A stretch of 64,000 bases of DNA from Terriglobia bacterium (GCA_963664115.2 CAXWPJ010000010.1:352001-416000), one strand, 5' to 3'. Positions 2,829 to 23,393 are shown, numbered from the stretch's first letter. A program made the numbers and translations. Notes: generated by a model from the sequence alone, not told the origin.

Positions 2829-3002
2829 TTCACCGCAAAGGCGCAAAGACACAAAGAATAAAAAGAGATAGGCTGTCTGGATTTCGGCGGGATGACCCTA
2901 GTAGGTTCCCAATGACTATGGTGCTAAGCCAACTGAGTGTGAGCAAAGTAGACTCAACGAAACCCGGTCTTGTCTTTTTTTCCTTTGCGCCTTTGCGGTG
3001 GA
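2829..3002. mobile_element. CGCAAAG-arm inverted-repeat element, copy 1 (MITE/REP-like)
   Basis: TTCACCGCAAAGGCGCAAAGACACAAAG ... CTTTGCGCCTTTGCGGTG with internal motif GGTTCCCAATGACTATGGTGCTAAGCCAA. Confidence 0.8.
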
Positions 3003-3070
3003 AAAGTAATCGATGCGATTGTGGCACAATGGAGGTTTGGACTGAGAACGGAAGAAGGAACTGACACTGA

Positions 3071-4879
3071 ATGAATCTTCGTAACATCGCCATCGTCGCA
3101 CACGTCGACCATGGCAAGACCACGCTCGTCGACGCCATGCTCTGGCAGAGTGGAACGTTTAAGAAGCACCAGACTGTGCAGGACCGCGTCATGGACTCGA
3201 TGGATCTCGAGCGAGAAAAAGGCATCACGATCATGGCCAAGAACACGGCCATTCGATATGGCGACATCAAGATCAACATCGTCGATACACCCGGACACGC
3301 TGACTTCGGAGGTGAAGTGGAACGCACTCTCGGGATGGTCGACGGCATCATGTTGCTTGTTGATGCAGCGGAGGGACCGCTGCCACAGACACGCTTCGTG
3401 CTGTCGAAAGCCCTGGATCTGAAGCTGCCCGCCATCGTCGTCGTCAACAAGGTCGACCGCAAGGATGCACGCGCCGCAGAAGTACTCAACGAGATCTACG
3501 ATCTGTTCATCGATCTCGACGCGACAGAAGGTCAAATCGATTTCCCTGTGGTCTACGCGGTGGCGCGGGAAGGCCAGTGCACTCGCACTCTCGGAGAACC
3601 GCTCACAGACCTGCGACCACTCTTCGACACGATCGTCGATCACATCCCCGCCCCAACTGGCGAGCCGGACCGGTCGTTTCAGATGTTGGTCACGACTGTA
3701 CAGCCGGACGACTACAGGGGACCGCTGGCGATCGGACGCATCGTTACCGGAACAATCCGTAATCGTCAAAAGGTCACCCTCTGCCACCGGGACAGTTCAC
3801 AGACTCAGGCTGAAGTGACCGAGCTGTTTGTTTACGAGGGCCTGGAACGCGTATCGACCGAGGAGGCCGGCCCGGGCGAAATCGTAGCGGTGGCCGGCAT
3901 GACGGGAATCGGGCTTGGCGAAAGCCTCGCAGACGGCGAAGATCCTCACCCCCTTGCACCGTTACACGTGGATGAACCGACGATGTCGATGGAATTCTTG
4001 ATCAACAACTCTCCCTTCAGCGGCAAGGACGGGGCCTACGTGACGTCGCGCCATCTGCGGGAACGCCTGATGAAGGAAGCGAGCAACAATCTTTCGATGC
4101 GGGTGGAAACCACCGATTCGCCAGACCGCTTTGAAGTATTCGGCCGGGGCGAGCTGCAACTGGCAATCCTGATCGAACAGATGCGGCGCGGGGGCTACGA
4201 GTTCTCGGTCGGAATGCCCCGCGTCATCACCCGGGATATCGAGGGACGCAAACACGAACCTTTCGAGCTGGCCCTGGTCGACACCCCGGAAGAGTATATG
4301 GGTGTCATCATGCAGAAGCTCGGGACGCGAAAAGGCGTGATGGGAAAGATGGTCAACCACGGCTCGGGTCGCGTGCGGCTGGAGTTCGACGTCCCCAGCC
4401 GGGGACTGATAGGATACCGGACCGAGTTTCTCACCGACACCAAAGGCACCGGCATCCTCACACATATCTTCAACGAGTTCCGACCGTGGGCGGGCGAGAT
4501 CAAACATCGGGCGACCGGAGCCCTGGTCGCTGACCGGGAGGGCCCCGTCACCGGCTTCGCGGTGATTAATCTGCAGGAGCGCGGTGAGCTCTTCGTCGCA
4601 CCTACCGATAAAGTCTACCGGGGCATGCTGGTAGGAGAAAACAGCCGGGACGCCGACCTCGACGTCAACATCACCAAGGAAAAGAAGCTGACGAACATGC
4701 GGGCGTCGGTCTCAGACACCTACGAGAAAATCGTTCCGCCCCGCCTGATGTCGCTGGAACAGTCCATCGAATTCATCCGCGACGACGAGCTGATCGAGGT
4801 CACTCCAAAACACCTCAGGCTCCGCAAACGCCACCTCGACCCCAACGACAGAAAGCAACACGCCGCACGGAATAATTAG
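3071..4879 (+). CDS. typA: Translational GTPase TypA/BipA
   Basis: [61 protein letters not shown]; 602 aa. Confidence 0.97.
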
Positions 4880-4880
4880 C
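4818..4880 (+). repeat. 63-bp direct repeat, copy 1 (3' end of typA)
   Basis: GGCTCCGCAAACGCCACCTCGACCCCAACGACAGAAAGCA...ATTAGC recurs at 5666-5728; first 40 nt identical, 5 mismatches in total by eye. Confidence 0.9.
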
Positions 4881-4899
4881 GCTCATTAAAAGACTAAGA

Positions 4900-4989
4900 T
4901 TTTTAACACGGAGGTCACGAAGTTGAGATGTCTTCAGAAAAAGAAACTTCGTGTTCCTTCGTTACTCTTCGTGGTCTTCGTGTTAAAAA
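4900..4989. repeat. ACGAAG-arm inverted-repeat hairpin element
   Basis: TTTTTAACACGGAGGTCACGAAG ... CTTCGTGGTCTTCGTGTTAAAAA with tandem CTTCGT units in the right arm. Confidence 0.7.
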
Positions 4990-5058
4990 CTCCCCTCTTA
5001 CTCCGGCCGGAGATGCGGGATGCTCTCCGTGCGTGAGTATATGTGATATATATACATA

Positions 5059-5364
5059 ATGGATCCGGGGGAACTGCTTACCAACTGCACCGGATTTGAT
5101 TGGGATGAAGGCAATCTGCTCAAAAACTGGGAGAAACATGCAGTCTCAGGCGCCGAATGCGAACAAATTTTCTTCAATCGGCCACTTGTCGCAGAACCAG
5201 TCGCCAAACATTCGGGTGGAGAAATACGGTACTACGTCTTGGGCCAGACAGATTCTGGTCGGCCGCTGTTCTTGGTCTTCACGGTTCGTGGCCAATTGAT
5301 TCGAGTGATTTCGGCTCGCGAGATGAGCCGCAAGGAGCGACGGGAGTACGAGAAACATGGCTAA
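5059..5364 (+). CDS. brnT: BrnT family toxin
   Basis: FDWDEGN..KNWEKHAVS, LFLVFTVRGQLIRVISAREMSRKERREY; overlaps the antitoxin start. Confidence 0.9.
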   Translation: MDPGELLTNCTGFDWDEGNLLKNWEKHAVSGAECEQIFFNRPLVAEPVAKHSGGEIRYYVLGQTDSGRPLFLVFTVRGQLIRVISAREMSRKERREYEKHG

Positions 5365-5656
5365 CAAACTGAAGAAGGTTCCTAGACAGCGGAATGAGGA
5401 TCAGGAGCGGAGCTTTTGGGCAAAGGCGGATTCGACAGGCTATATCGATTGGAGTCGAGCGCGCCCCCTGCTCTTGCCGGGCCTCAAACCGACGCTTAAA
5501 ACCATTTCAATTCGCTTACCTGAACACATGATTGCTGAATTGAAACTTCTCGCAAACAAGCGGGATGTCCCGTATCAAAGCCTGCTCAAGCTCTACCTGG
5601 CGGAACGGATCGACAAGGAGATGAAGCACCTCGGCCCATCGAAACTGAAAGCCTAG
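5357..5656 (+). CDS. brnA: BrnA/CopG-type ribbon-helix-helix antitoxin
   Basis: ERSFW...DSTGYIDWS, TISIRLPEHMIAELKLLANKRDVPYQSLLKLYL; coupled to brnT. Confidence 0.85.
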   Translation: MANKLKKVPRQRNEDQERSFWAKADSTGYIDWSRARPLLLPGLKPTLKTISIRLPEHMIAELKLLANKRDVPYQSLLKLYLAERIDKEMKHLGPSKLKA

Positions 5657-5665
5657 CCAGTCCCT

Positions 5666-5728
5666 GGCTCCGCAAACGCCACCTCGACCCCAACGACAGA
5701 AAGCAGCACGCTGCACGAAACGATTAGC
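5666..5728 (+). repeat. 63-bp direct repeat, copy 2 (duplicated typA 3' end)
   Basis: Diverged copy of 4818-4880 located 9 bp after the brnA stop. Confidence 0.9.
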
Positions 5729-5763
5729 CTGATTGGAACAATTGAGCTAGTCCAAATGTTTTT

Positions 5764-5945
5764 TTCACCGCAAAGGCGCAAAGACGCAAAGGAAGATAAA
5801 GACAGGATAGGTTGCCAACGCCGAATTCGACCGGCACCAGTTGGGTTGGCAACACAGTTGTTGGAAACCCACAAAACTGCATGCTGCTCGAATTTAAACA
5901 GCCTATGCCTTCTTTTTCTTTGCGCCTTTGCGCCTTCGCGGTGAA
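5764..5945. mobile_element. CGCAAAG-arm inverted-repeat element, copy 2
   Basis: TTCACCGCAAAGGCGCAAAGACGCAAAGG ... CTTTGCGCCTTTGCGCCTTCGCGGTGAA; core GGGTTGGCAACACAGTTGTTGGAAACCC; ends 3 bp from the lysS stop. Confidence 0.85.
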
Positions 5946-5948
5946 TTC

Positions 5949-7424
5949 CTACTCCGGGCGGAGATGGGGAAAGAGTATGACGTCGCGGATGGACTTGGAA
6001 TCGGTCAACAACATCGTCAAGCGGTCCAGGCCGATGCCTTCCCCGGCGGTGGGGGGCATGCCGTATTCGAGAGCATGGACATAGTCTGCGTCCATGGAGT
6101 GCGCTTCGTCGTCGCCCCGCGCCTGCGCTTCCAACTGGGCTTCAAAACGCTTCTTCTGGTCGATCGGGTCGTTCAATTCGGAATAGGCGTTGGCCAACTC
6201 CATCCCGGCGATATACAGCTCAAATCGCTCGACCAGGCTCGGATCGTCCTTCTTGGCCTTCGAAAGAGGCGACATCTCGATGGGGTAGTCGTAGACAAAC
6301 GTGGGTTGGATCAGGTGCTTTTCAGCTACGGCATCGAAAAGCTCGCCGATCAGGCTTCCCAGCCCGAGTTGCGGATTGTAGTTGGCACTCACCTTGTCCA
6401 GCAGAGCCTTCACTCGGTCAAGGTCCGATAACTCCGCTTCTTCGATCGCATCGCCCGGAAAATACTTAACGATGGCTTCCTTGACTGTGATCCGTGTCCA
6501 TTGATTGAAATCCACTCCAACGCCGTCGTAGGTGATCGTCCGGGAACCACAAACTTTGTCCACGACCCCGGTGATCATTTCCTCAGTGAGATCCATCAGG
6601 TCGGTGTAGTTGCTGTAGGCCTGGTAGAACTCCAGCATCGTGTATTCGGGATTGTGCTTGAATGATATGCCCTCGTTTCTGAAGTTGCGGTTCAGATCAT
6701 AGACCCGCGTCAAGCCCCCGACGATGAGACGTTTCAGGTACAGTTCCGGTGCGATCCGCAGGTACAGGGGCATGTCGAGGGCATTGTGGTGAGTCTGGAA
6801 CGGCCGGGCCAGCGCACCACCGGCGATAGGCTGCAGAATCGGCGTTTCCACTTCAAGATATCCGCGATCATCGAGAAAGCGCCGCAACTCGCGGATGATC
6901 ACGCTTCTCTTGACAAAAACATCCCGCACATCCTGATTGACGATCAAATCGACATAGCGGCGGCGATAGCGGATTTCGATGTCGGTGAGACCGTGCCATT
7001 TTTCAGGCAGAGACCGCAGGCTCTTGGCCAAAAAGGTCAACCCGGACGCCAGGACAGTCAGCTCGCCTGTGCGCGTGCGAAACATCACGCCTTCGGCTCC
7101 GATGAAGTCGCCGATATCGAGCAAACGATAGAGTTCGAAATCAAGTTCGGAGAGCTTGTCCTTCCGGGCGTAGACCTGGATCTGTGAGCCGCCTTCGGAA
7201 ATCGTCAGAAAACCAGCCTTCCCGAAAGGCCGTGCGGCAACGATCCGACCGGAAACCCTTACCGTCGTCGGTTTGGCTTCGAGCGTCTCCGCCGAGTCCG
7301 GCTCAAACTGCTCAACCGCCGCCGCAATCGTGTGGGTATAGCGGTAGCTCGTAGGATAGGGATCACACCCCAACGCCTCGATCTTCTGGAGCTTCTCTAA
7401 GCGTATTTCTTCAGGTTCGTCCAT
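5949..7424 (-). CDS. lysS: Lysine--tRNA ligase (class II)
   Basis: [59 protein letters not shown]. Confidence 0.97.
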
Positions 7425-7432
7425 AAGATTTT

Positions 7433-7603
7433 TTCACCGCAAAAGCGCAAAGGAAAAGAAAACGTAGCCTGTGAAAGTTCAGGGCAATCAATTCTCATGG
7501 GTTCCCAATAACCGTATCGAAAATCCAACTGTTTCTGGTCGATTTAGATGTAGGCAAGGTGTTCAGTCTTTTCTTCCTTGGCGCCTTTGCGCCTTTGCGG
7601 TTA
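7433..7603. mobile_element. CGCAAAG-arm inverted-repeat element, copy 3
   Basis: TTCACCGCAAAAGCGCAAAGG ... CCTTTGCGCCTTTGCGGTTA; fills the nusB-lysS spacer, and its terminal TTA is the nusB stop. Confidence 0.85.
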
Positions 7604-8020
7604 GCTCTTCCTCTCTTCTTCGATTTCCTTGTAGATACTGTCGAGCAAGCCGTTGATGAACCGGGGGGATCCCAGGGTGCTGAAACGGCGCGCGATTTCA
7701 ATCGCCTCATCGATCACGACCGTCGCCGGTGTATCGGGTTCGTGCAACAGCTCCTGGGTGGCCATGCGCAGCAGGTTACGGTCGAGAGTTTCCATCCGCT
7801 CCAGACGCCAGTTCTTTGCGTGGCGCTCGATCAATGGATCCAGGGCTTCAAGATGTTCGACGGTGCCGTGTACCAGGCGGTCGGCAAAGGTGCGGACATC
7901 GTCTTCTGCTTTGTTCACTTCCCAGAACGTCGCAATCGACGTATCCAGGTTGTCGCGCCGGAGATCCCACTGATACAACATCTGAAGCGCATATTCTCTC
8001 GCGGCCCGTCGACTGCCCAT
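7601..8020 (-). CDS. nusB: Transcription antitermination factor NusB
   Basis: SRRAAREYALQMLYQWD, NWRLERM..LDRNLLR, VVIDEAIEIARRF, FINGLLD; follows ribH. Confidence 0.95.
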   Translation of the reverse strand: MGSRRAAREYALQMLYQWDLRRDNLDTSIATFWEVNKAEDDVRTFADRLVHGTVEHLEALDPLIERHAKNWRLERMETLDRNLLRMATQELLHEPDTPATVVIDEAIEIARRFSTLGSPRFINGLLDSIYKEIEEERKS

Positions 8021-8023
8021 AGA

Positions 8024-8509
8024 TCAGAGACCCCGAAGCGACTGCACCATCTCGATGACAGCAATAGCCGCGTCGTAACCGCGGTTCCCGATCCCACCGC
8101 CGGCCCGCGCCAGGGCTTGTTCGACGTTATCGGTCGTCAGCACTCCGAAACCGATCGGGATGCCCGAATCCAATGAGACACGTTCCAATCCATGGGTCGC
8201 AGCCTGGCTCACGTACTCGAAGTGCGGCGTCTCGCCACGAATAACGCAACCCAGCGCAATGACCCCATCGCAGTTCTTCGCCAATCTCTGCGCGGCCAAG
8301 GGTAACTCGAACGCGCCCGGAACGCGGACGACGTCCACCCCATCACGACGGGTTCCGGTCTTTTCGAGCGCACTGAGCGCTCCTTCAAGGAGACGATCCA
8401 CGATCTCCTGATTGAATCGGCCCGCGACAATCGCGAAGCGATAGCCCTCTGAAGCGAGGTCCTCGATCGGATCCGGTTCTTTTTTACTTCCCTTTGAAGT
8501 TGGGGGCAC
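8024..8509 (-). CDS. ribH: 6,7-dimethyl-8-ribityllumazine synthase
   Basis: RFAIVAGRFN, VPGAFELP, ALGCVIRGETPHFEYV, FGVLTTDNVEQA. Start (GTG 8509) uncertain. Confidence 0.93.
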   Translation of the reverse strand: MPPTSKGSKKEPDPIEDLASEGYRFAIVAGRFNQEIVDRLLEGALSALEKTGTRRDGVDVVRVPGAFELPLAAQRLAKNCDGVIALGCVIRGETPHFEYVSQAATHGLERVSLDSGIPIGFGVLTTDNVEQALARAGGGIGNRGYDAAIAVIEMVQSLRGL

Positions 8510-9263
8510 GTTTCTCCAGGAACGCTTCGGTCCCTTCTCGCACGTCTTCGGTCGCAAAGCACATCCCGAACAGAGTCGCTTCAAGGAACTGCCCTTCGGA
8601 CAAAGTCATTTCCATTCCACGATGGACGGCTTCGAGACAGTACCCGACGGCGAGAGGTGCGTTCGTCATGATTTTCCTCGCCAAGCCTTCCGCTGTCGAG
8701 AGAAGTTCAGACTGTGACACAAGGCGATTGATGAGACCCATTGCCAGTGCCGCTTCCGCAGAAACCGTCTCGCCCGACAACAGTATCTCGAGAGCCCGTC
8801 CTTTCCCGACCAGCCGAGGCAGGCGTTGGGAACCGCCGTATCCGGCAATCAGGCCCAGGCCAACTTCGGGCTGTCCAAAGACTACGTTCTCCGATGCCAC
8901 CCGCAGCGTGCATGCCATCGCCAGCTCACATCCTCCGCCCAGCGCGTATCCGTTGACGGCAGCGATCACCGGTTTGCCGAGTTGCTCAATAAAATTGAAG
9001 ACATCCTGTCCGGCGAGGGCATACTCGCGTCCGTCCGCAGGCGAAAGGGAGGCAAACTCTTTGATGTCCGCACCGGCAACAAAAGCCTTTGTGCCACTGC
9101 CGGTCAAGATCACGACACGCACTTGATCGTCACCCACAGCGGACTCGAAGGCCGTAACCAACTCCGACATCGTCAACTTGTCGAGTGCGTTGTGAACTCT
9201 CTCCCGGTTGACGGTAACGAAAGCGACACCATCTTTTACGTCATAGAGCAGATTTTCGTACAT
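8484..9263 (-). CDS. Enoyl-CoA hydratase / crotonase family protein
   Basis: AFVAGADIKEF, AAVNGYALGGGCELAMAC, FGQPEVGLGLIAGYGGSQRLPRLVG. Confidence 0.92.
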   Translation of the reverse strand: MYENLLYDVKDGVAFVTVNRERVHNALDKLTMSELVTAFESAVGDDQVRVVILTGSGTKAFVAGADIKEFASLSPADGREYALAGQDVFNFIEQLGKPVIAAVNGYALGGGCELAMACTLRVASENVVFGQPEVGLGLIAGYGGSQRLPRLVGKGRALEILLSGETVSAEAALAMGLINRLVSQSELLSTAEGLARKIMTNAPLAVGYCLEAVHRGMEMTLSEGQFLEATLFGMCFATEDVREGTEAFLEKRAPNFKGK

Positions 9264-9289
9264 CAGCGCTTTTCTCTAGCGTCAAAGGA

Positions 9290-9424
9290 TTCACCGCAAA
9301 GACGCAAAGGAAGACAAGAAAGACATGGAATTGGGATATCAGGACAGTCGTTGAGAACCCTGAAGGGTCCAGTTCGCTGCACCTTTCACGGCCTATCCCT
9401 TTTTTCTTTGCGTCTTTGCGGTTA
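9290..9424. mobile_element. CGCAAAG-arm inverted-repeat element, copy 4 (internally shortened)
   Basis: TTCACCGCAAAGACGCAAAGG ... CTTTGCGTCTTTGCGGTTA; retains core TTGGGATATCAGGACAGTCGTTGAGAACCC. Confidence 0.8.
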
Positions 9425-9506
9425 GATCCCGAAGGGGAGATTATCTCATATACATGGACTGCAGGGATTCGTCGGCAGAATCCATTTCAATCTGTGTAAT
9501 CCGCAG

Positions 9507-10478
9507 CTAACGGTAGCGGACGGTGAAGTTGGTGTTGACGTTTTGGCCGGGATAGGTCTGGGACAGCGTGAAGACATCGCCTACGGCGAATGGCTGGCCC
9601 ATCGGTTCCGCGTACACAGTGTAGTTTCCGGGCGTCAATCCCTGGATCGTGAACACTCCGGTCGGATCTGTCACCGCGCTGGCAGCGGCCAGACCGTTGG
9701 GATCGAGCGCCAAAACCATCGCACCAAACACTGCGGCATTCGCCGTCGTGCGCACGGTGCCGCTGATGGACCCCAGCGCTGAGAAGGACGCGTCCGGATA
9801 GATCGTCGACAAACCAATCATGTCGTCGAGCGCTATCGTTCGGGGAAAACTGACACCTGGAAGAATCGTTGGGAACATGGCCGATGACAGTATGTTGGAA
9901 TGATCCAGTCCCAGAAGGTGGCCCACCTCGTGTGTTGCCACAGATTCCAAATCGAATCGGTCCGAAGGGGTCGTGGTGCTTAAGCTGAAGCTGACATCGG
10001 GGTTGAACATGATGTCCGCGTCAATGATTTGCCCGGCAAATTCTACTTCGGTTCCGGTCGTCATATCGGTTCCCGTACTGGTAAAGCTGAAAGCACCGGT
10101 CAGTCCGAGCGCCGTGGAATTGAAGTCGGACGTCGACACGTTCGTCGTGATGAGGTTCACCAGATCCAGGCCAGGCAACACCGAGGGATCCGTGACCTGA
10201 CCTTCGCTGAACGTCAGGTCTGAAGTCGTCACATCCGCCCATTGCTGGAACGAATTTCGAAACACATCGGCCTGTTCCCGGTCTCCGGTAACGTTGGAAC
10301 CCACGGTCGGGTTCATGCGCCAGGTGATCGGCATGAATGAATCGGCCCACTTCACTGCAATCACGTTCCCGTTTATATCCAGATTGGTTTCCGGAATGTA
10401 GGCCAGAAGCGGCACCGTCACGAGCACAAAGGCCGCGGCGACGACAATGCGTTTCCGCTTTGATGGCATCTGATTCAT
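9507..10478 (-). CDS. Secreted matrixin (M10-like) metalloprotease with C-terminal carboxypeptidase-regulatory-like domain
   Basis: Signal peptide; metzincin motif HEVGHLLGLDH plus Met-turn SAMFP; C-terminal GSISGTV...G.FTIQGLTPGNYTVYAEP. Confidence 0.8.
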   Translation of the reverse strand: MNQMPSKRKRIVVAAAFVLVTVPLLAYIPETNLDINGNVIAVKWADSFMPITWRMNPTVGSNVTGDREQADVFRNSFQQWADVTTSDLTFSEGQVTDPSVLPGLDLVNLITTNVSTSDFNSTALGLTGAFSFTSTGTDMTTGTEVEFAGQIIDADIMFNPDVSFSLSTTTPSDRFDLESVATHEVGHLLGLDHSNILSSAMFPTILPGVSFPRTIALDDMIGLSTIYPDASFSALGSISGTVRTTANAAVFGAMVLALDPNGLAAASAVTDPTGVFTIQGLTPGNYTVYAEPMGQPFAVGDVFTLSQTYPGQNVNTNFTVRYR

Positions 10479-11044
10479 CGACCCACTCCCGCGACCAACT
10501 CACGGATCTGGGCTTTGAACTCCTCAAGCCCCACTCTCCGGACAATCGAAGCACCCGTGACGAGCCCGGTTTTGGGGCTCACCAGATCCACGCCGCTGAT
10601 GTTCGCGGTCGCAAAATCCTCTTCGATCACATAACGGCCCTGGTTCAGACCCACGACGTGGAAGGTCCCGTTGCCTGCGTCCTTCAGGAACACGATGACG
10701 CTCGCGCCTTCATTGAATTCCGGCATACCCGGCACAGACAGGACAAGCGCACCGACCTGGCCACCCATCTGGCGTATCTGCAATGTCCGACGTCGCTCTC
10801 CTTTTAGAGGATCATCAACCCGGATCGTCGCATAGGTGAATATCAGTTTCTTTTCGCTGTCCCATTGGCTCGAGACCGACTCCACGACACCCTGGATGAT
10901 GCTGTCAGACTCGCTGACAAGATCTTCGAGATCCATATCGACGACGATGCTGCTCGCGACCGGCCTCGCCCACAGGAGCACTGCCAGTCCGAAGCAGAGC
11001 GTGAGGACGAGCGATTTTTTGTCGAGTTGGTTGCTATGCTTCAT
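10475..11044 (-). CDS. Secreted hypothetical protein
   Basis: Signal peptide; DLEDLVSESDSIIQGVV...GGQVG...GMPEF..G..VIVFL; ATGA overlaps with both neighbours. Confidence 0.7.
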   Translation of the reverse strand: MKHSNQLDKKSLVLTLCFGLAVLLWARPVASSIVVDMDLEDLVSESDSIIQGVVESVSSQWDSEKKLIFTYATIRVDDPLKGERRRTLQIRQMGGQVGALVLSVPGMPEFNEGASVIVFLKDAGNGTFHVVGLNQGRYVIEEDFATANISGVDLVSPKTGLVTGASIVRRVGLEEFKAQIRELVAGVGR

Positions 11045-13286: not shown

Positions 13287-13471
13287 TTCACCGCAAAGGC
13301 GCAAAGACGCAAAGGAAGAAAAGATAAAGACGGATAGGCTGCCTACATCCCGCTTAACTAGAGCTATTTGGGTTAGCAAGAAAGTTGTTGAGAACCCATC
13401 GAGCTTCGGTCAGCTGAAATCTCGACAGACCATCCCATCTTCCTTGTGCGCCTTTGCGTCTTTGCGGTAAA
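13287..13471. mobile_element. CGCAAAG-arm inverted-repeat element, copy 5
   Basis: TTCACCGCAAAGGCGCAAAGACGCAAAGG ... CCTTTGCGTCTTTGCGGTAAA; core GGGTTAGCAAGAAAGTTGTTGAGAACCC; between convergent genes. Confidence 0.85.
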
Positions 13472-13474
13472 AAA

Positions 13475-15487: not shown

Positions 15488-15566
15488 GCTTTTTATCCTA
15501 AAATGAGGAAAGGACGCAATGACCTCGTCACTGCGTCCTTCAATTTTCGGCCGCTTACCGTGGAGC

Positions 15567-15995
15567 TTACTCCGCCGTCACGGGAACAACAACGTCCACG
15601 ATCTGGCGCGAGCAAAAACCGTCGGATTTGGAACAAAAGAAGTAAACGAGTTCGCCTGGAATCTCATACTCACCCGCCACGGCCGCTTCCACGGCAACAT
15701 TAAAAGCGGGCACGTCCACGTAATAATCGTCAGTCGATTTCGGATCTTCTGGAGGCGACTCCAGCTTGGCCGCATCGTGCGTCAACCCTTCAACAGGCTG
15801 CAGCTTCAACTGGATCGCCGGCACGCGGTTGATCACGTATCCGTCCAGGACGTCGAACGAGACGACAACCTCGCCGCCGGCGCCGGCTTCGATGGCATCG
15901 TCAGAATAGTTCGCTTCCATAACCTGCGGCAGTCCCCCTCCCAAAGTCAGGAGCTGGGAAAGAAGAAGGATGATTCCGAATCCAAAATTCACCAT
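15567..15995 (-). CDS. Secreted hypothetical protein, DsbD N-terminal-like fold
   Basis: Signal peptide; GELVYFFCSKSDGFC Cys pair resembling nDsbD. Confidence 0.55.
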   Translation of the reverse strand: MVNFGFGIILLLSQLLTLGGGLPQVMEANYSDDAIEAGAGGEVVVSFDVLDGYVINRVPAIQLKLQPVEGLTHDAAKLESPPEDPKSTDDYYVDVPAFNVAVEAAVAGEYEIPGELVYFFCSKSDGFCSRQIVDVVVPVTAE

Positions 15996-16072
15996 AATAG
16001 TCTCCTGCGATTGCCCGTACGGATGTATTCCTCACGACATCGAATGCGCTGGAAATCGTTCAGAATTATAAC

Positions 16073-17164
16073 ATGAGAATCATTTCCGTCGCGGGCGCCC
16101 GGCCCAACTTCATGAAGATCGCGCCCCTGGTCGCCGAGTGCAGCAGGGTCTCTGGAATCAACCACTTGCTGGTCCATACCGGGCAACACTACGACACACA
16201 GATGTCAGACGTATTCTTTCGGGATTTGTCCATTTCCTCACCCGATATCGATCTCGGTGTCGGATCGGCGTCCCACGCGGTTCAGACGGCCCGGATCATG
16301 ATGGAATTCGAAAAGGTCTGTACGCGGGAGCTCCCGGACCTCGTTATCGTCGTCGGTGACGTCAACTCGACGATGGCGGCAACCCTGGTAGCGGCCAAGC
16401 TCAACATACCGGTTGCGCACGTCGAAGCGGGCCTGCGCAGTTTCGATCGCGGGATGCCCGAGGAGATCAATCGCATCGTGACGGACCAGTTGGCGGACTA
16501 TCTGTTCACGACGAGCCGGGAGGCGGACGAGAACTTGAAGCGGGAAGGCGTGAACCCTGAGAAGATCCACTTCGTCGGAAACGTCATGATCGACACTCTT
16601 CTCAAGCACCGGGGGAAGGCCGATGGTCTCAACGTTGCCTCCGGGCTGGGAATCGACGGCACAGACTACGCTCTGATGACCCTGCACCGGCCGTCAAACG
16701 TAGACAACCCGGCCGTTCTTCAGGGAATTCTTACCGCCGTTCAGGACATCTCGACATCGCTCCCGGTGATCTTCCCCATTCATCCGCGTACATCGCAACG
16801 GATCCGGGAATTCGATCTCGACGCGATGGTCCACGGCAGCGTCCGTCTGACCGACCCCCTGGGATACCTTGAGTTTCTCAACTTGATGTCGGGAGCCCGC
16901 CTGGTCCTGACCGACTCAGGAGGCCTGCAGGAAGAAACGACGATTCTGGGCGTCCCGTGTCTGACGATCCGGCAAAACACCGAGCGCCCCGTGACAATCT
17001 CCGAAGGCACGAACGAACTGGTCGGGACGGATCCGGTCCGTATTCGGGAAGCTGCAGACAGGATTCTTGCCGGAAATTGGAAAACACCCCGCGTACCCGA
17101 ATACTGGGACGGCAAAGCGGCTGAACGGATTGTTGCGATACTCACCGCGAACGTTTCTGCCTGA
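16073..17164 (+). CDS. wecB: UDP-N-acetylglucosamine 2-epimerase (non-hydrolysing)
   Basis: GARPNFMK, HTGQHYD, VGDVNST, HVEAGLRS, MPEEINR, TDSGGLQEE. Confidence 0.95.
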   Translation: MRIISVAGARPNFMKIAPLVAECSRVSGINHLLVHTGQHYDTQMSDVFFRDLSISSPDIDLGVGSASHAVQTARIMMEFEKVCTRELPDLVIVVGDVNSTMAATLVAAKLNIPVAHVEAGLRSFDRGMPEEINRIVTDQLADYLFTTSREADENLKREGVNPEKIHFVGNVMIDTLLKHRGKADGLNVASGLGIDGTDYALMTLHRPSNVDNPAVLQGILTAVQDISTSLPVIFPIHPRTSQRIREFDLDAMVHGSVRLTDPLGYLEFLNLMSGARLVLTDSGGLQEETTILGVPCLTIRQNTERPVTISEGTNELVGTDPVRIREAADRILAGNWKTPRVPEYWDGKAAERIVAILTANVSA

Positions 17165-17195
17165 ACTGCACAACTGTCGAAGAGAAGCCGAAGAT

Positions 17196-17379
17196 TTCAC
17201 CGCAAAGGCGCAAAGACGCAAAGGAAGATGGGATGGTCTGTGTAGATTTCGTCTGATCGCAACTCTATGGGTTCTCAACGACGTTCTTGCTAACCCGAAT
17301 AACTCCAGTCGAGCGGGATGAAGGCAGGCTATCCCGTCCTGCTTTTTCTTCCTTTGCATCTTTGCGCCTTTGCGGTTAA
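17196..17379. mobile_element. CGCAAAG-arm inverted-repeat element, copy 6
   Basis: Same arms; the interior is closely similar to the reverse complement of the copy 5 interior. Confidence 0.85.
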
Positions 17380-17555
17380 TCCCCTCTTAATTCTTCCCTT
17401 AAATGTCTCGAAAGCCCGGAAAAAGTGGGTCGTTGACCCGGAGGTTATGGGTCAGACGCCCATTCAGTTTCAATAGTTTAGTGGAGGACCATGACATGCT
17501 CAGTCGTCGATGGGTCGGTGACGATGATTACTCTGTTAACTTCGAGTGGGATAAA

Positions 17556-18101
17556 ATGGCACATATGGATACCAAGGGGCCGGCGACGATCGACGATCTC
17601 TATAACGTTCCCGAAGACGGGCGTAAATACGAGCTGGTCGACGGAGAGATTCTGGTGAGCCCGGGTGGGTTCCGCCACGGCCAAGTCTCCGTCCAGATCG
17701 GCTACCTGATCAAACGATTCCTGGAAGGTTCACCGATCGGCGTTGTCTGCGGCGCGGACCTCGGCATTATCTTCCCCAACGGCAACTTGAGATCTCCGGA
17801 CGTAACTTTCGTTCGTAACGAAAAGGTCCCAGCCGGGGAGGCGGCTGAGCGATTTCTTGAGGCTGTGCCCGACCTCGTGGTCGAAGTACTTTCTCCGGGC
17901 GACCACATGCGGCATGTCGCAGACAAGATCGGTGAGTTCCTGGAATCCGGTGTGTGTCTGGTCTGGTTGGTCGACCCTCAGCCCGAAACCGTCACGGTGT
18001 ACCGCTCGTTGACCGATACCCGCCAACTCCGGGGCGACGACCTCATCGACGGAAACTCTGTCCTTCCAGGCTTCAAAGCGAAAGTCTCCGACTTCTTTTA
18101 G
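17556..18101 (+). CDS. Uma2 family (DUF820) PD-(D/E)XK endonuclease
   Basis: KYELVDGEI, RSPDVTFV, PDLVVEVLSPGD, LVWLVDP, VLPGF. Confidence 0.9.
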   Translation: MAHMDTKGPATIDDLYNVPEDGRKYELVDGEILVSPGGFRHGQVSVQIGYLIKRFLEGSPIGVVCGADLGIIFPNGNLRSPDVTFVRNEKVPAGEAAERFLEAVPDLVVEVLSPGDHMRHVADKIGEFLESGVCLVWLVDPQPETVTVYRSLTDTRQLRGDDLIDGNSVLPGFKAKVSDFF

Positions 18102-18142
18102 CTTCAGCTGAACTGCAGATTACTCAGACCGAAACAAAATCT

Positions 18143-18321
18143 TTCACCGCAAAGGCGCAAAGGAAGATGGGTTGGTCTGTGTGAATTGCGTCGGACTGAA
18201 CCTCTATGGGTTCTCAACAGCATTCTTGCTAACCCAGACAGCTCAAGTCGCGCAGAACGTAGGCAGTCTTTCCGTCTTTCTTTCATTTTCTTCCTTTGCG
18301 TCTTTGCGCCTTCGCGGTGAA
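18143..18321. mobile_element. CGCAAAG-arm inverted-repeat element, copy 7
   Basis: Same arms and interior orientation as copy 6; the flanks are also homologous. Confidence 0.85.
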
Positions 18322-18651
18322 TCCCCTCTCAGTTCTTCCTAAAGAAGTCTCGAAAGCTGCGCCTTTGCGGGTCGCGGTTTTAGCGGTCTTTCACTTCCCC
18401 TCTGTTTGATTTCAGTGCGTTAACAACGGACCTCTCCGTGCACTTCTAGTCAGCGTTCCGGTGGATGGCGGGCTTGGGGGCTCAATTAACCGAAGGGCCG
18501 GTGCCTCCGACGTGATTCGCCGGAACTCATTCTCCAAATTCCTCTCGGCGGTTAGAAGGCGAGGCTGTGTATTTACAAATGGAAAGGGCCGCAGTTTCGC
18601 GGGCCGCCGGGAGGAAACACATCCAACCACTATTACCTCAAAGGAGGTTTC

Positions 18652-18957
18652 ATGTTTCGAAAAGCATTTGCAGCGACGCTCCTCTTCACGTTCCTGTTCG
18701 CCATGGCCACGATCGCGCCCCAGAGCAGTGAAGCTCAGTCTGCGACCACCATGGTCATCGATATCAATTCGGCTCCCCTGGCTGCGCTCCAAGGCATCGT
18801 TCAGGACGAGGGTCTCGCCCAGCGGATCATCGAAAATCGGCCGTATGCCAACAAACGGCAGTTGCTTTCACGTCAACTCGTGTCGGCAGAGCAATACGAC
18901 GAGATCAAGGACAGGATCATTGCTCGACGGATCGAGGATTCGGAAGACTCCCGGTAG
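18652..18957 (+). CDS. Exported helix-hairpin-helix (ComEA-like) protein
   Basis: AGGAGG RBS, signal peptide, IDINSA..AALQGI...LAQRIIENRPYANKRQL...YDEIKDRIIA. Confidence 0.8.
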   Translation: MFRKAFAATLLFTFLFAMATIAPQSSEAQSATTMVIDINSAPLAALQGIVQDEGLAQRIIENRPYANKRQLLSRQLVSAEQYDEIKDRIIARRIEDSEDSR

Positions 18958-18964
18958 CGCGGCA

Positions 18965-19252
18965 ATGTACGCGCGCATGGTGATCGGCGAAGCAATCCAT
19001 GAAGATCAGGTTTCAGAGTTCGTTCGGATCTACGAGTCAGAAGTGCTTCCCAAGCTCCACGACGAACCGGGGTTCGAATCGGCGAACTTCATGGTCGAAG
19101 ATGGAGGCCGGATGGCGATTTCGCTCACGCTCTGGCAATCCCAGCAGGACTGCCTGAAATACCACTCCAGTATGGCTTACCGCCAGTTGGTGGAAAAAAC
19201 CCAGCATCTGTTGAAAGGCAGTTTCATCGTGCGGTTATTCCGTACCGTTTAG
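18965..19252 (+). CDS. ABM (antibiotic biosynthesis monooxygenase-like) dimeric alpha/beta barrel protein
   Basis: MYARMV...EVLPKLHDEPGF...ISLTLWQSQQDC..YHSS..Y. Confidence 0.7.
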   Translation: MYARMVIGEAIHEDQVSEFVRIYESEVLPKLHDEPGFESANFMVEDGGRMAISLTLWQSQQDCLKYHSSMAYRQLVEKTQHLLKGSFIVRLFRTV

Positions 19253-19285
19253 GCCCGAGACAGAAAGCGGGGGAGGCAAGAGACC

Positions 19286-19392
19286 TAACCGCAGAGACGC
19301 AAAGGCGCAAAGGAAGAGAGAAGAGTCAGTTTGTCTTTTCTGAAAATCATTTTTCTTTGTCTTCCTTTGCGCCTTTGCGTCTTTGCGGTTCA
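19286..19392. mobile_element. CGCAAAG-arm inverted-repeat element, copy 8 (short, no core)
   Basis: TAACCGCAGAGACGCAAAGGCGCAAAGGAAGA ... TCTTCCTTTGCGCCTTTGCGTCTTTGCGGTT. Confidence 0.8.
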
Positions 19393-19426
19393 AACTTCTT
19401 GCCTCTTCATATCCATGCCTCTGCGT

Positions 19427-20443
19427 TCATTCTTTTTCTTTTCTGCGGTAGGGCCTGAAATCGACGTTGCATCGGTGGCGCCGCAGGAAGTCCATGAATC
19501 GCTTGTAATCGGTGTCGGGCATATTAAAGAGTCGGACGACCTTTCTGTAGCTACCGTGGGTTTGAACCAGGCCACGCCGGATGACGGCCTCGACCTGTCG
19601 CTTGGTGATCAGACGGTCGGTGTAGGGCCGGGCGACCGATTCCCAGAAATCGTCGACGACGACTGCCTCGACAGGTTCCCGAACCAGGGCATCCGTGGGC
19701 AGCGTGATCGCATCCGGTGCAATAATTTCTGTCTCCGACATGTAGTAGCTGCTTTCAATGACGTTCTGCAGTTCGCGAATGTTTCCCGGGTAATGATAGG
19801 CAAGCAACTTTTCCATGGCATTGGGCGACAGAGTTCTCTCTTCTCCACTGTCGGCATTCAGCGATGCGACGATATGACGCACCAGAAGCGGGATGTCGGA
19901 CCGGCGCTTTCGAAGCGGGGGAACTTCAATCGCAAATACGTTGAGACGGTAGAGGAGGTCTTCGCGGAAATCACCCGAACGCGCCATCGACCGAAGGTCA
20001 CAGTTGGTGGCGGCGATTATGCGGGCGTCGATCGGGCGGTCGACAACGTCACCGAGTCGACGCACCTGCTTCTCCTGAAGCACGCGGAGAAACTTCACCT
20101 GGAATCGTTTGGAAGTATTCGCAATTTCATCCAGGAAGAGCGTTCCCTGGTTCGCTTGCTCAAAAAGTCCGGGTTTGTCGCCGATGGCCGTCGTAAAGGC
20201 GCCACGCCGGTAGCCGAACAGTTCGCTTTCGACCAGTTCTTCCGGAAGGGCACCGCAATCAATGGGCACGAACCGGCGCTGGCGGCGGCTGCACTGATCG
20301 TGAATAGCACGTGCGACCAATTCCTTTCCGGTACCGGTCTCTCCCTGGATCAGAACCGAACTCGAAGTTCTGGCAGCGGCTTGAATTTTTGAGTGCAGGA
20401 GTTCGACCGCATCACTTTGTCCAATCATTTTTGTTCGCATCAT
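19427..20443 (-). CDS. Sigma-54-dependent activator (bEBP) lacking an N-terminal sensor domain
   Basis: MIGQS, VLIQGETGTGKELVARAIH, ESELFGYRRGAFTTA, GTLFLDEI, FREDLLYRLNV, YPGNIREL. The upstream part of the 558-aa ORF is antisense to the ECF gene. Confidence 0.88.
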   Translation of the reverse strand: MMRTKMIGQSDAVELLHSKIQAAARTSSSVLIQGETGTGKELVARAIHDQCSRRQRRFVPIDCGALPEELVESELFGYRRGAFTTAIGDKPGLFEQANQGTLFLDEIANTSKRFQVKFLRVLQEKQVRRLGDVVDRPIDARIIAATNCDLRSMARSGDFREDLLYRLNVFAIEVPPLRKRRSDIPLLVRHIVASLNADSGEERTLSPNAMEKLLAYHYPGNIRELQNVIESSYYMSETEIIAPDAITLPTDALVREPVEAVVVDDFWESVARPYTDRLITKRQVEAVIRRGLVQTHGSYRKVVRLFNMPDTDYKRFMDFLRRHRCNVDFRPYRRKEKE

Positions 20444-20464
20444 GACACTACAGCCGGAGCAGAC

Positions 20465-20992
20465 ATGGAAAAGGTCACTCAAAAATTGGAGCAAGGCAGC
20501 CCGGAGGTTCTCGAAGAGCTCGGTCGCGCAATCCGAAAGATCCATGGCACGCGCGATCCGGATCTCGAGCAGGAAGTCTTTCTCAGAACGCTCAAGGCGT
20601 TTCGGAAGGAAAGAAGGGTCGAGCATCCGCGGGCACTCATATGGAAGATCGCCAAAGACACGGTCGCTGACCATTGGAGGCTCAGGGCGCGGGACCGTTG
20701 GGACCCCCTGGACGAACTCCAGCACCCGGCCGCCCAGGACACGGATGCCGAACGCGACCTCGATCGAAAACGTCGTGTCGAACAATTGCGAAACGGGATC
20801 CTGCGACTTGGATGCGACATCCGGGGATCGGTCTACCTGTTTTACATGGAAGGCTATTCGGTTTCCTCGATCGCGCGGATTTATGGAAAGACGCCCTCCG
20901 CGGTCAAGATGGCCCTCTACCGGGGACGGCGGCAATTGGTGCGAATGTTTCGATCGGACGCGACTAACAAGTCGGGCTTCGAGCGACTTTGA
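20465..20992 (+). CDS. ECF-type RNA polymerase sigma factor
   Basis: Region 2 DLEQEVFLRTLK...LIWKIAKDTVADHWR; region 4 LFYMEGYSVSSIARIYGKTPSAVKMALYRGRRQL. Confidence 0.85.
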   Translation: MEKVTQKLEQGSPEVLEELGRAIRKIHGTRDPDLEQEVFLRTLKAFRKERRVEHPRALIWKIAKDTVADHWRLRARDRWDPLDELQHPAAQDTDAERDLDRKRRVEQLRNGILRLGCDIRGSVYLFYMEGYSVSSIARIYGKTPSAVKMALYRGRRQLVRMFRSDATNKSGFERL

Positions 20993-21102
20993 GGCCCGCC
21001 AGAGCCGTAACTCATTGATCTCAAGACGGACTAAGAATGGAACCCCACGTGAAACAGTCTGAGTCGGGCACACGGTCCGCGATCTGGGAGGATCAACACA
21101 CA

Positions 21103-21285
21103 ATGAATCGACAAATTGTAACGCTCAGCAGCACAGAGCTCATGGGAACAGTCGGCGGTGACTGGAATTGGCACGATTTCTTTGCGGGGGCCACCTGGGG
21201 TTTAGGCGCAGGCTGCGGGATCAGCGGTCACCCCGTTCTGTGTATGGGCGCCCTGTTTACTGGCGGCATAACGATGTTCTTCTAG
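21103..21285 (+). CDS. Bacteriocin-like precursor peptide A (double-glycine leader)
   Basis: GGAGG RBS; leader MNRQIVTLSSTELMGTVGG, then 41-aa hydrophobic core DWNWHDFFAGATWGLGAGCGISGHPVLCMGALFTGGITMFF. Confidence 0.85.
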   Translation: MNRQIVTLSSTELMGTVGGDWNWHDFFAGATWGLGAGCGISGHPVLCMGALFTGGITMFF

Positions 21286-21297
21286 GAGGAATGAACA

Positions 21298-21483
21298 ATG
21301 ACATCACACGTCCAAGACATTTCCGCATTGGAACTCCAGCAAATTGGTGGAGGTGACTGGTTTGAAACCACCTGGGGAATCCTGCTCGGCACGGGATTCG
21401 CTGCCGGCTTCCTCGGTTCGGGTGGACTGCTGACGATTGCAGGAATCGCCGGATTTGGCCTGATCTTCGGTCCCCCGTTCTAA
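21298..21483 (+). CDS. Bacteriocin-like precursor peptide B (double-glycine leader)
   Basis: AGGAGG RBS; leader MTSHVQDISALELQQIGGG, then 42-aa core DWFETTWGILLGTGFAAGFLGSGGLLTIAGIAGFGLIFGPPF. Confidence 0.85.
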   Translation: MTSHVQDISALELQQIGGGDWFETTWGILLGTGFAAGFLGSGGLLTIAGIAGFGLIFGPPF

Positions 21484-21505
21484 GCATTCAACCTCTTCAA
21501 CCCTT

Positions 21506-21529
21506 AGGTGCGCTCGAATGGGCGCACCT
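21506..21529 (+). terminator. Stem-loop after the precursor genes (no U-tract; attenuator or RNA stabiliser)
   Basis: AGGTGCGCTC-GAAT-GGGCGCACCT, 10-bp stem with one G-U pair. Confidence 0.5.
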
Positions 21530-21576
21530 CGCATTCCACCTGGACCTGCGTGCCATGCGCGCACAAAACTAAATCA

Positions 21577-22317
21577 ATGGACGTCTTTCAACTCGAACAA
21601 GCCGTCAAAAAGCGCAGCGACGATTTTGTCCTGGGACCGCTCGACCTTCATCTCTCAGCGGGGGAAATCCTCGGTGTCATGGGCCCTAACGGTGCGGGCA
21701 AAACCACCCTCCTGCGATTGTTGTGGGGCTTTCTGCGTCCGGACGCCGGGCGCGTGTCTGTGTTCGGCAGAACACCCCATCTGGAACAGGTCTGGATTCG
21801 TCTACGGGCGGGCTACCTTCCCGAGTCGTTGAAGTTCTATGACTGGATGACGGTGGATCGATTCCTTGCGTTCATGGCCGGTTTCTATCCGTCCTGGGAC
21901 TGGGGCCATGCCCTTGAACTCCTGGAGCAGTTCGGAATAACTCCCGCCCGGACTATCGGGACCTTATCCAAAGGAAATCGGGTGAAGCTGGGCCTTCTGG
22001 CAGCGGTGGCCCATCGGCCAAAGCTACTGATCCTGGACGAACCGACCTCGGGTCTGGACCCCTTGATACGAATCGACATCCTCCATTTCCTCCGATGCTC
22101 CGCACAAGAAGACGGCACGGGAATCGTCCTGTCCTCTCATGTGTCCGACGATCTGGACCGGATTGCCGATTCCGTTCTGATGCTGAACGACGGCAAGGTA
22201 TTGGAGTATGCGCCGACTAAGGTTCTGCTCGACAAAACCAACGAAACTCAACTGGAGGCTGTGTTTTTGAATGCGGTCGGTAGGATTCCCACATCTCGCG
22301 TTCCACATCGCGCGTAA
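21577..22317 (+). CDS. ABC-2 type transporter ATP-binding protein (putative immunity)
   Basis: GPNGAGKTT, LSKGNRVKL, LLILDEPTSGLDP, LSSH. Confidence 0.88.
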   Translation: MDVFQLEQAVKKRSDDFVLGPLDLHLSAGEILGVMGPNGAGKTTLLRLLWGFLRPDAGRVSVFGRTPHLEQVWIRLRAGYLPESLKFYDWMTVDRFLAFMAGFYPSWDWGHALELLEQFGITPARTIGTLSKGNRVKLGLLAAVAHRPKLLILDEPTSGLDPLIRIDILHFLRCSAQEDGTGIVLSSHVSDDLDRIADSVLMLNDGKVLEYAPTKVLLDKTNETQLEAVFLNAVGRIPTSRVPHRA

Positions 22318-22906
22318 AGACTGGGCCGAAGCGCGTCATGTCGTGATCGCGCTGACCCTGGGTCTTATGGTTCCCGCCCTGCTCGTCCGCTTCGCTCCGG
22401 GCCGTTCGGACGACTTCGCAAAAGGTCTGCTGGCCGGCTTGCTCGCAGGTGCCGGTTTCGGCTACGCCCAGTTCTGTTTCCTGAACGAACGCCAGCGAGG
22501 CACACTGGAGTTTCTGCTCAGCCTTCCCATTGAGCCCCGACAGCTTGTCCTCGCCAAATTCGTCTCCCTGTACTCAATGGTCCTTTTCACCGTAAATGTC
22601 CCTGGCCTGCTCGTCCCAGACCTTCGGCTCGTCTACATCACCAACGCCGCAGCCCTTTCACTAGCAACCGTCTTCATGGCCACAACGGTCATCTCAGACA
22701 AGCCCTGGGCCTCGCAAATACCCATCTGGTTCCTTCTCGTCTTCATCCTCCCCATCCAACGCCTCCTCGAACGCTACTACCCCAACGGACTGCAGCTCTT
22801 CGAAACCCTCACCGCCAACCCCATTCTGTTAGCGACATTCGCCTTGCTCGTCAGCCCGCTCGTTGTCGCTGTATCCGTTTCGATTTTTCACCGCAAAGGC
22901 GCAAAG
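22271..22906 (+). CDS. ABC-2 type permease (putative immunity); no own stop, reads in frame into the GxxExxY gene
   Basis: About 6 TM segments; ERQRGTLEFLLSLPIEPRQLVLAKF motif. Confidence 0.8.
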
Positions 22907-23393
22907 GTGAATGAGAACCCTTTGTCACGGAAGGTCATTGGGGCCGTAATTGAAGTGCACCGCATCTTAGGCCCGGGCCTACTAGAGTCGATTTATCAAG
23001 ACTGCCTCGACATTGAGTTCCGGCTTCGAAGAATCAGGTTCGAAAGGGAAAAGAGAATCCCTCTCATCTACAAAGACCAAGATCTGAGAGAGCGCCTTCG
23101 TATCGACTTTCTCGTCGCAGATGAAGTCGTAATCGAAACCAAATCCGTTCACTCGTTACTGCCCGTACATGACGCGCAAGTGCTCACGTACCTAAAGTTG
23201 ACCGGCTGCAAATTAGGTCTGCTGATCAACTTCAACGTCCCAGTAGCAAGAGACGGAATCAAACGCATCGTAAACCGCCTCTAGCCCCCCCCCTTTTCGT
23301 TTGCATCGACGCCCCCTTTGTTTCCCATTCGGATTCCCCCTCCCCCATATAGAATCGTCTTTCTTCTTTGCGTCTTCGCGCCTTTGCGGTGAA
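22887..23393 (+). mobile_element. CGCAAAG-arm element, copy 9, enclosing a GxxExxY nuclease gene
   Basis: Left arm TTCACCGCAAAGGCGCAAAGG abuts the GTG start; right arm CTTTGCGTCTTCGCGCCTTTGCGGTGAA. Confidence 0.8.
22907..23284 (+). CDS. GxxExxY protein (PD-(D/E)XK nuclease fold)
   Basis: VIGAVIEVHRILGPGLLESIYQDCL, RIDFLVADEVVIETKSV, HDAQVLTYLKLTGCKLGLLINFNV, GIKRIVN. Confidence 0.92.
   Translation: MNENPLSRKVIGAVIEVHRILGPGLLESIYQDCLDIEFRLRRIRFEREKRIPLIYKDQDLRERLRIDFLVADEVVIETKSVHSLLPVHDAQVLTYLKLTGCKLGLLINFNVPVARDGIKRIVNRL

Follow-up and report, generated by a model that had tools for sequence, protein, structure and literature searches.

Among described systems, those closest to the one reported here are the REPIN/RAYT (REPtron) and TIRtron systems (PMC3116915, PMC3733652, and PMC8266576; these and the papers below are each cited from part of their text). 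PD-(D/E)XK enzymes have also been discussed in connection with mobility. Rpn/YhgA proteins are stand-alone PD-(D/E)XK proteins of patchy distribution that have arrived independently at one site, and gene acquisition via cutting and host repair was proposed for them (PMC5350276). TnsA of Tn7 is a PD-(D/E)XK enzyme of transposition, and the PDDEXK_3 family is listed as being of unknown function, with multiple transfers (PMC3424549). Runs of the heptamer TAACTGA occur in Beggiatoaceae, cyanobacteria, and Bacteroidetes; in describing them, MacGregor suggested that the mobile unit may be a protein that binds the word and assigned a putative regulatory function to runs close to start codons (PMC4679880). 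Here, we analyzed a 64,000-nucleotide stretch of a Terriglobia bacterium genome (GCA_963664115.2, CAXWPJ010000010.1:352001-416000), hereafter the window, in which inverted arms built of the 7-bp word CGCAAAG bound gene-less elements and one gene encoding a GxxExxY (PDDEXK_3) protein. The association between such arms and GxxExxY genes is real, general, and apparently unpublished: no description of it was found in the literature covered, outside of which lay supplements and most subscription papers. We consider it fairly probable that these parts form a selfish system of nuclease and repeats: the GxxExxY protein would bind the words and likely cut nearby, and host repair would spread the arm-bounded DNA.

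A first-pass annotation of the window had listed nine elements, all of which are present with the arms it described, two or three CGCAAAG[G/A] units and an inverted arm at the opposite end. Eight are gene-less and measure 107 to 185 bp (the annotation gave ~105 to 185 bp). They lie at 2829-3003, between the starts of lolE and typA; 5764-5946, at the lysS 3' end; 7433-7604, from the lysS start to the nusB stop, with the nusB TAA in the arm terminus; 9290-9425; 13287-13471, between convergent peptidyl-prolyl isomerase (PPIase) and radical SAM (rSAM) genes; 17196-17379, after wecB; 18143-18321; and 19286-19392. The ninth element (22887-23393, 507 bp) carries the GxxExxY gene. A tenth, absent from the earlier list and built on another word (CACGAAG), is at about 4902-4990.

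The source genome (G000; 4.89 Mb, 12 contigs, with the window at C10:352001-416000; other G numbers denote genomes compared with it) was searched for the exact pattern CGCAAAGRCGCAAAG, which gave 57 + 61 matches vs 0 for the reversed control. With 118 matches against none, the CGCAAAG pattern is not due to chance. A genome-wide scan identified 46 paired CGCAAAG elements of 58 to 499 bp and 15 unpaired arms, so that the repeats are mainly inverted doublets between genes. Four of the 46 pairs fall in a 14.3-kb segment that occurs twice in the assembly, which leaves 42 distinct pairs, 16 of them in the 66 kb ending at the GxxExxY gene. The arm consensus, derived from 41 elements, consists of a purine-rich outer flank of ~12 bp, TT(C/A)AC, two or three CGCAAAG words in direct order with an 8-bp period, and a purine-rich inner flank. 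The annotation had seen no consistent target-site duplication (TSD), and our measurements agreed: the longest flanking direct repeat averaged 3.98 vs 4.02 in shuffled pairs (41 elements), with 62 of 100 shuffles reaching the observed value. Sixteen paired CACGAAG and seven CGCAGAG elements are also present in G000.

Some further features of these repeats were recorded. The duplicated 14.3-kb segment (C9:1-14285 = C10:366445-380728, 99.9% identical) includes the GxxExxY cassette, ends at an IS1380 copy, and represents either an assembly overlap or a recent duplication. Two other palindromic families, GGGGACGGACACTT... and GGGGTCAGAGCCCT..., occur genome-wide in G000, and a ~220-bp repeat is inserted within the element at C10:327104. 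At locus L342 (positions 1228-1629; G000 C6:113829-114170), a CGCAAAG arm pair surrounds most of a small non-GxxExxY open reading frame (ORF), whose neighbors, judged by eye, resemble genes for RNase H and endonuclease III.

The gene-bearing element consists of a left arm of two words, the GxxExxY gene, a spacer of ~75 bp, and a right arm of three words. Its ORF (22907-23284, plus strand, 125 amino acids) matched TIGR04256 at 147 bits (cut-off 35) and PF13366 at 143 bits (cut-off 22) and, the duplicated segment aside, is the sole GxxExxY gene of G000. PF13366 was the only Pfam family matched, the Rpn/YhgA family PF04754 was not, and PADLOC profiles gave no match for this protein. A structure model built from a 55-sequence alignment had a predicted local distance difference test (pLDDT) score of 94.5; without the alignment, the score was 35.5. 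No sequence relative of the protein was found in the PDB, and an Atlas search returned PDDEXK_3 clusters only. Foldseek alone gave weak matches to lambda exonuclease, Cas4, and RecB-like domains, none at E ≤ 0.001; after realignment, SSO0001 was the best match (Z 10.4, root-mean-square deviation 3.3, 100 aligned residues), and Hjc reached 7.3. All 55 aligned proteins have E27, D67, and Y95, and at least 90% of them have E77, K79, and Q91; the catalytic motifs are D67, E77-x-K79, and Q91-xxx-Y95. As modeled, the GxxExxY protein is a PD-(D/E)XK protein of Cas4/RecB-like fold with its catalytic residues kept.

The earlier description of the ninth element, with exactly one GxxExxY gene whose GTG start abuts the left arm, was correct as to the gene and needs one addition, since the gene is also fused to the one upstream. 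The final codons of an ABC-2 permease-like ORF (22271-22906, plus strand) are the left arm itself, and the frame continues into the nuclease GTG with no stop between (22271-23284, 337 amino acids). This joint was unchanged in contigs from other samples. In relatives, a third word ends the permease frame either where the nuclease begins or slightly ahead of it, and the permeases of G007, G017, G026, G029, G004, and G013/G021 end in arm-like sequence, mostly at or overlapping the nuclease start. The left arm in the window is one 8-bp unit shorter, hence the fusion, and the G000 nuclease copy may thus be tethered or no longer active. The arm-supplied stop at the nuclease start in relatives suggests translational coupling, with the arms serving gene expression. 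The cassette-free permease of G006 (L085) ends in AKAQH/AKAQR, resembling the arm-encoded ends of cassette-bearing relatives; this end is either an old arm retained as coding sequence or a near-cognate target.

The association was analyzed for GxxExxY loci from relatives, named genomes of many phyla including archaea, metagenomes, and two viral contigs. A locus was counted as armed if an upstream/downstream inverted match scored at least 24, and loci at least 90% identical or with short flanks were dropped (220 to 194; held-out set, 80 to 74). Arms surrounded 163 of the 194 non-redundant loci and then 56 of the 74 held-out loci, for a total of 219/268, vs 0 of 30 nusB loci; mismatched flank pairs gave 30%. 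GxxExxY genes are therefore enriched between arms, a point that the first-pass annotation had put forward for testing. The consensus arm word around them was CRCNRAK, and loci with such words had 170 arm pairs facing inward and 22 facing outward. GxxExxY genes were carried by 103 of 301 genomes sampled from the source phylum. In a hand tally of 61 genomes, some of them kin and thus not independent, at least three triple arms were found in 25 of 37 genomes with a GxxExxY match vs 4 of 24 without one. Intact GxxExxY was the commonest content of long inward arm pairs (6/14), in regions that were chosen around the gene and are thus biased. In G000, 14 of 62 triple arms were within 50 kb of the gene vs 1.3 expected, and five of six relatives tested showed such enrichment; we kept this clustering outside the main evidence because all share one site and G002, which lacks the gene, shows clustering too. 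Searches of viral contigs gave 0 and 2 relatives; there were none in 50,697 phage records and 7 in 72,556 plasmids, so that carriage by phages or plasmids was not apparent at this sensitivity.

Arm sequence and protein also covary, as had been suggested for testing: residue 7 of the protein tracks position 5 of the word. This comparison further excluded loci that lacked arms, contained stops, or had non-CRCNRAK words (leaving 149 + 43 loci; 186 scored). In the first set, no residue covaried better with word position 5 than residue 7. Among held-out loci, Thr7 occurred with G5 in 20/20 and other residues with A5 in 15/22; in the combined 186, there were 120 G and 3 A with Thr7 and 25 G and 38 A with other residues. 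The window's protein has Ser7, paired with A at position 5 of its word. Within sequence clusters built without residues 1 to 10, residue 7 ranked first of 103 columns (z 7.2). At each of four cuts, every informative cluster (3, 8, 5, and 4 clusters, respectively) agreed in direction, with p 0.065 at the tightest cut and 0.0002 at the others; at the 0.35 cut, 8/8 agreed (p 0.0002). No single clear residue emerged for other word positions (best z 3.8, 4.4, and 2.2). Neighboring third codon positions showed no covariation with the word, and left-only and right-only arms gave the same signal (z 6.9 and 7.2); physical linkage between the left arm and the 5' end of the gene is not supported as the cause. 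A hidden fourth word at codons 6 to 8 is not supported either, with exact matches in 6 of 190. These patterns make it likely that the GxxExxY protein binds its arm word directly. Of the earlier suggestion that the protein recognizes the arms and moves the elements, recognition is supported by this covariation, and movement by the nuclease alone is not.

Most gene-less copies share an interior. Seven of the eight in the window, all except the short element at 19286, have a homologous interior with a ~100-bp core, which is reversed in the elements at 5764, 9290 (where it is shortened), and 13287. The core is present at 24 distinct G000 loci (16 were used to build its profile), in both orientations and always beginning at an arm. 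Cores are 70-85% alike, and the words stay nearly perfect. The core had no match to the GxxExxY cassette, and descent of gene-less copies from the gene-bearing copy by deletion was rejected. G002 and G003 contain the same core mostly with CGCAGAG arms, and one G002 copy is chimeric, its two arms being of different words.

The elements could instead be regulatory RNAs or terminators, kept because they form hairpins in mRNA or bind proteins where genes end, with an incidental link to GxxExxY. The copy at 17196 forms one long hairpin (z -7.7), 16 of 39 elements lie between convergent genes according to crude ORF calls, and the role that MacGregor proposed for heptamer runs near start codons would be a precedent. 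However, no compensatory change was found in 15 predicted pairs across 16 copies, non-word positions of partner arms matched no better than random pairs, Rfam covariance models gave 0 matches at gathering score in positions 2000 to 24500, and the corresponding sites of relatives are empty or contain unrelated elements. Selection for hairpin pairing was rejected because compensatory changes are absent, and we regard a regulatory explanation as very improbable. Selection appears to act on the word, as expected for protein-binding sites.

Orthologous junctions in relatives showed rapid turnover within retained synteny across the family. The lysS-nusB junction, compared in 21 relatives, was empty (6 to 18 bp) in seven and contained an intact CRCNRAK-word element in six, a decayed element in two, another periodic family in two, and other sequence in four. 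Turnover was similar at the PPIase-rSAM, crotonase 5', wecB 3', and sigma-54-activator junctions. The comparison of filled and empty sites recommended in the first-pass annotation thus revealed empty orthologous sites; clean insertions between close relatives were not seen, and whole-spacer replacement and nesting took their place. In pairs 91-96% identical, the whole spacer was often replaced and new arms were nested in old ones, and replaced tracts extended 20 to 60 bp past the arms, into gene ends. At the permease end, relatives have GxxExxY genes 39-69% identical to that of G000 with five different words; G006 has none there. The word of the gene is also that of nearby gene-less elements in G000, G007, G017, G019, G026, and G029. 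A cassette that is whole in G021 has an internal deletion in G013. At the permease site, the G004 gene is a pseudogene, and both its arms and those at lysS-nusB have decayed; G001 has a decayed element and no GxxExxY gene. Gene ends are duplicated at the permease (G013 and G021), at typA/lysS, and at locus L011.

Four other observations concern these junctions. At L011 (G059 C33), the 3' end of the upstream gene is repeated ahead of each of two tandem GxxExxY cassettes. The nusB stop is where elements of different words begin, both in the window (7601-7604) and at the orthologous sites of G002, G003, G026, and G029; its TAA belongs to the terminus, possibly reflecting a target preference. Contig C2 of G004 is 99.5% identical to G007, which belongs to another genus, and was treated as probable bin contamination. 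Joints in conspecific contigs have sides shorter than 30 bases, and we read them as other loci sharing arms.

Replaced tracts, doubled gene ends, the chimeric G002 element, and the different GxxExxY genes at one permease site all fit a homing-like replacement of alleles, in which the protein cuts spacers and promotes their exchange with DNA of relatives, new sites being rare and illegitimate. However, the 24 G000 loci with one core, found in either orientation and each time adjoining an arm at its start, call for within-genome copying, and replacement of alleles as the whole explanation seems improbable to us.

The first-pass annotation had likened the family to RAYT/REP or transposase/MITE (miniature inverted-repeat transposable element) arrangements. 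The layout is similar; the enzyme, the repeat type, the lack of a TSD, and the lack of conserved pairing are not. An ordinary MITE or REPIN family moved by an insertion sequence (IS) transposase or RAYT, with one copy capturing a gene, would account for the inverted termini, shared core, and intergenic location, and G000 is IS-rich with two Y1_Tnp genes. However, no RAYT or IS with the same termini was found. Both Y1_Tnp genes, the only single-copy transposases screened, lack arms and are more than 114 kb from any arm, and among 290 multi-copy segments of at least 500 bp, one has an arm near its end, outside the segment. The elements lack a TSD, and the same layout surrounds GxxExxY genes of many phyla (219/268). 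This explanation is largely refuted, and we give it almost no weight.

Two other gene groups of the window are likely cargo. A BrnT/CopG-BrnA toxin-antitoxin pair (5059-5656, plus strand) lies between two copies of the typA-lysS junction: the typA end at 4818-4887 is repeated at 5666-5734 and the lysS end at 4996 and 5947, so that ~65 bp of the typA 3' end and ~25 bp of the lysS 3' end are doubled around the pair. The first junction copy has the CACGAAG element (4902-4990) and the second a CGCAAAG element. The Uma2 (PF05685) nuclease-fold ORF (17403-18101, plus strand, with a true start probably later than 17403) matches the PADLOC profile PDC-S03 and is flanked by two diverged direct copies of an element with ~35 bp of flank, the element at 18143 being a duplicate of that at 17196 including its right flank. 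Since both groups lie between duplicated element junctions, a landing-pad role for the elements fits a nuclease-driven system as well as one in which all enclosed genes are passengers.

In the latter case, the arms would be handles for host recombination or for an unidentified enzyme, and the nuclease would bind them for self-regulation. The positions of Uma2 and BrnT/BrnA agree with this, as does a RAYT-like cassette with its own palindromes at the PPIase-rSAM site of G010 (by eye), and G002 and G023 have arms without a gene. Genes for four-helix-bundle proteins, which are not known as nucleases, also show the layout, with inverted periodic arms that use other words (evident at four of the seven loci listed), so that the layout needs no nuclease. 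However, catalytic residues are retained in 90-100% of the 55 aligned proteins, intact GxxExxY occupies 6 of 14 long inward arm pairs (in the biased regions noted above), a decayed gene is accompanied by decayed arms, and no candidate enzyme with these termini was found in G000. Overall, we judge a passenger role for the nuclease unlikely, though still deserving attention. Four-helix-bundle cassettes are a parallel system whose gene is not known as an enzyme. At L349, L350, L353, and L356, TIGR02436 four-helix-bundle genes lie within inverted CTGACCA/CTGACTA-type heptamer runs, two tandem copies occur in G026, and no such gene was found in G000.

In the nuclease-driven mechanism that we favor, the GxxExxY protein would bind the tandem 7-bp arm words through its N-terminal helix and cut at or near the arms. 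Host recombination would repair the cut by arm or short flanking homology, copying or swapping the arm-bounded DNA, and gene-less brackets of the same word would spread, replacing older ones between genes. Cutting near the arms by the GxxExxY protein is probable, and that its cutting, instead of a third-party enzyme, spreads the elements is a somewhat better than even prospect. Integration would not involve strand transfer; host repair, guided by arm homology or other short homology, would achieve it. This proposal accounts for word conservation without pairing, the lack of a TSD, nesting, replacement, chimeras, and gene-end duplications. With GxxExxY genes enriched between arms, empty sites in relatives, and no RAYT or multi-copy IS found to carry the termini, none of the three outcomes that the first-pass annotation named as refuting its proposal occurred. 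That proposal of a nuclease-driven family is partly supported, but the nuclease as sole agent of mobility is not.

Several observations weigh against it. The existence of four-helix-bundle cassettes is one, and 49 of the 268 GxxExxY loci have no arms. Arms occur in genomes without a detected GxxExxY gene: G002 (2 contigs, 97% complete, 51 triple arms), whose permease was not found with the query used, so that a regional loss is possible there, and G023 (230 contigs, 155 arms). G000 lacks a GxxExxY gene of the CACGAAG or CGCAGAG word despite having elements of both, and the G003 gene has CACGAAG arms amid CGCAGAG elements. Near-identical copies at unlinked loci were not found (cores are 70-85% alike), nor was an empty allele among the listed pieces of conspecific contigs (eight runs), and nothing points to movement at present. 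Ser7 encoded by AGY goes with G5 (13:1) and Ser7 encoded by TCN with A5 (22:11), a split that would not be expected if the residue alone set the base. Strictly independent pairs, 4.2 in the same direction and 0.1 opposite (median p 0.125), are too few. Finally, no means is known by which a hydrolytic nuclease by itself could join DNA.

Two features outside the element family complete the window. The peptidase-containing ABC exporter at 23513-25618 goes out of frame near 23784, where a C run has one extra base in contigs of three other runs while X5 agrees with the window; the break is therefore read as an assembly slip or a strain variant. The other half of the window, which lacks paired elements, holds other genes at 27071-28603, 35963-37048, 55672-56154, 61146-62432, and 46669-47745, namely IS1380, IS630, and IS256 transposases, a group II intron reverse transcriptase fragment, and a metallo-beta-lactamase-fold gene that scored below every curated cut-off.

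These results provide the widespread PDDEXK_3 family, so far of unknown function, with a specific putative substrate and a predicted specificity residue. If the enzyme drives the spread, the elements would be mobile by means outside DDE, HUH, tyrosine, and serine chemistry. They would then represent a new class of selfish element without transposase, recombinase, or reverse transcriptase, marked by co-evolving word and enzyme, overwriting of rivals, and landing pads; our confidence in this tentative label falls slightly short of even. The label hangs on the mechanism, and were the genes mere passengers, the cassette layout would still be an undescribed one. If correct, the proposal would account for a common unannotated repeat family and fast intergenic turnover in uncultured bacteria, and a 125-amino-acid nuclease whose target is shifted by a single residue could make an attractive tool.

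Compared with known systems, the elements resemble IS-derived MITEs in their terminal inverted repeats and in a non-coding core shared by many loci. They differ in having no TSD and no transposase with these ends, in a core that does not derive from the gene-bearing copy, and in the different arm words of sister species. The heptamer runs (PMC4679880), as far as described in the portion cited, are likewise short runs of a 7-bp word, patchy and at gene boundaries; they are direct repeats with no enzyme identified, and their word is nearer to four-helix-bundle arms than to CRCNRAK. Cas4/RecB-like proteins (SSO0001, 4ic1) share D...ExK and QxxxY motifs with the GxxExxY protein, and SSO0001 is its closest solved fold, whereas GxxExxY is a 125-amino-acid protein with no Cas or TnsB/TnsC gene adjacent in the window. 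Rpn proteins, stand-alone and patchy PD-(D/E)XK nucleases, are the nearest precedent for mobility by cutting and host repair; they belong to PF04754 and not PF13366, RpnA has little sequence specificity, and the cited part of the report describes no cognate arms (PMC5350276). Like REPIN/RAYT systems, the present one combines a low-copy nuclease gene between repeats with gene-less inverted doublets of those repeats, binds repeat type to enzyme type, and clusters near the gene. REPIN/RAYT systems use an HUH Y1 tyrosine transposase and short self-palindromes with a GTAG/CGTC tag, in contrast to the PD-(D/E)XK protein and the two or three direct 7-bp words with an 8- to 9-bp period found here. Conservation here follows the word and not base pairing, and GxxExxY cassettes have a patchy distribution, are often present in several copies, and replace one another at one site.

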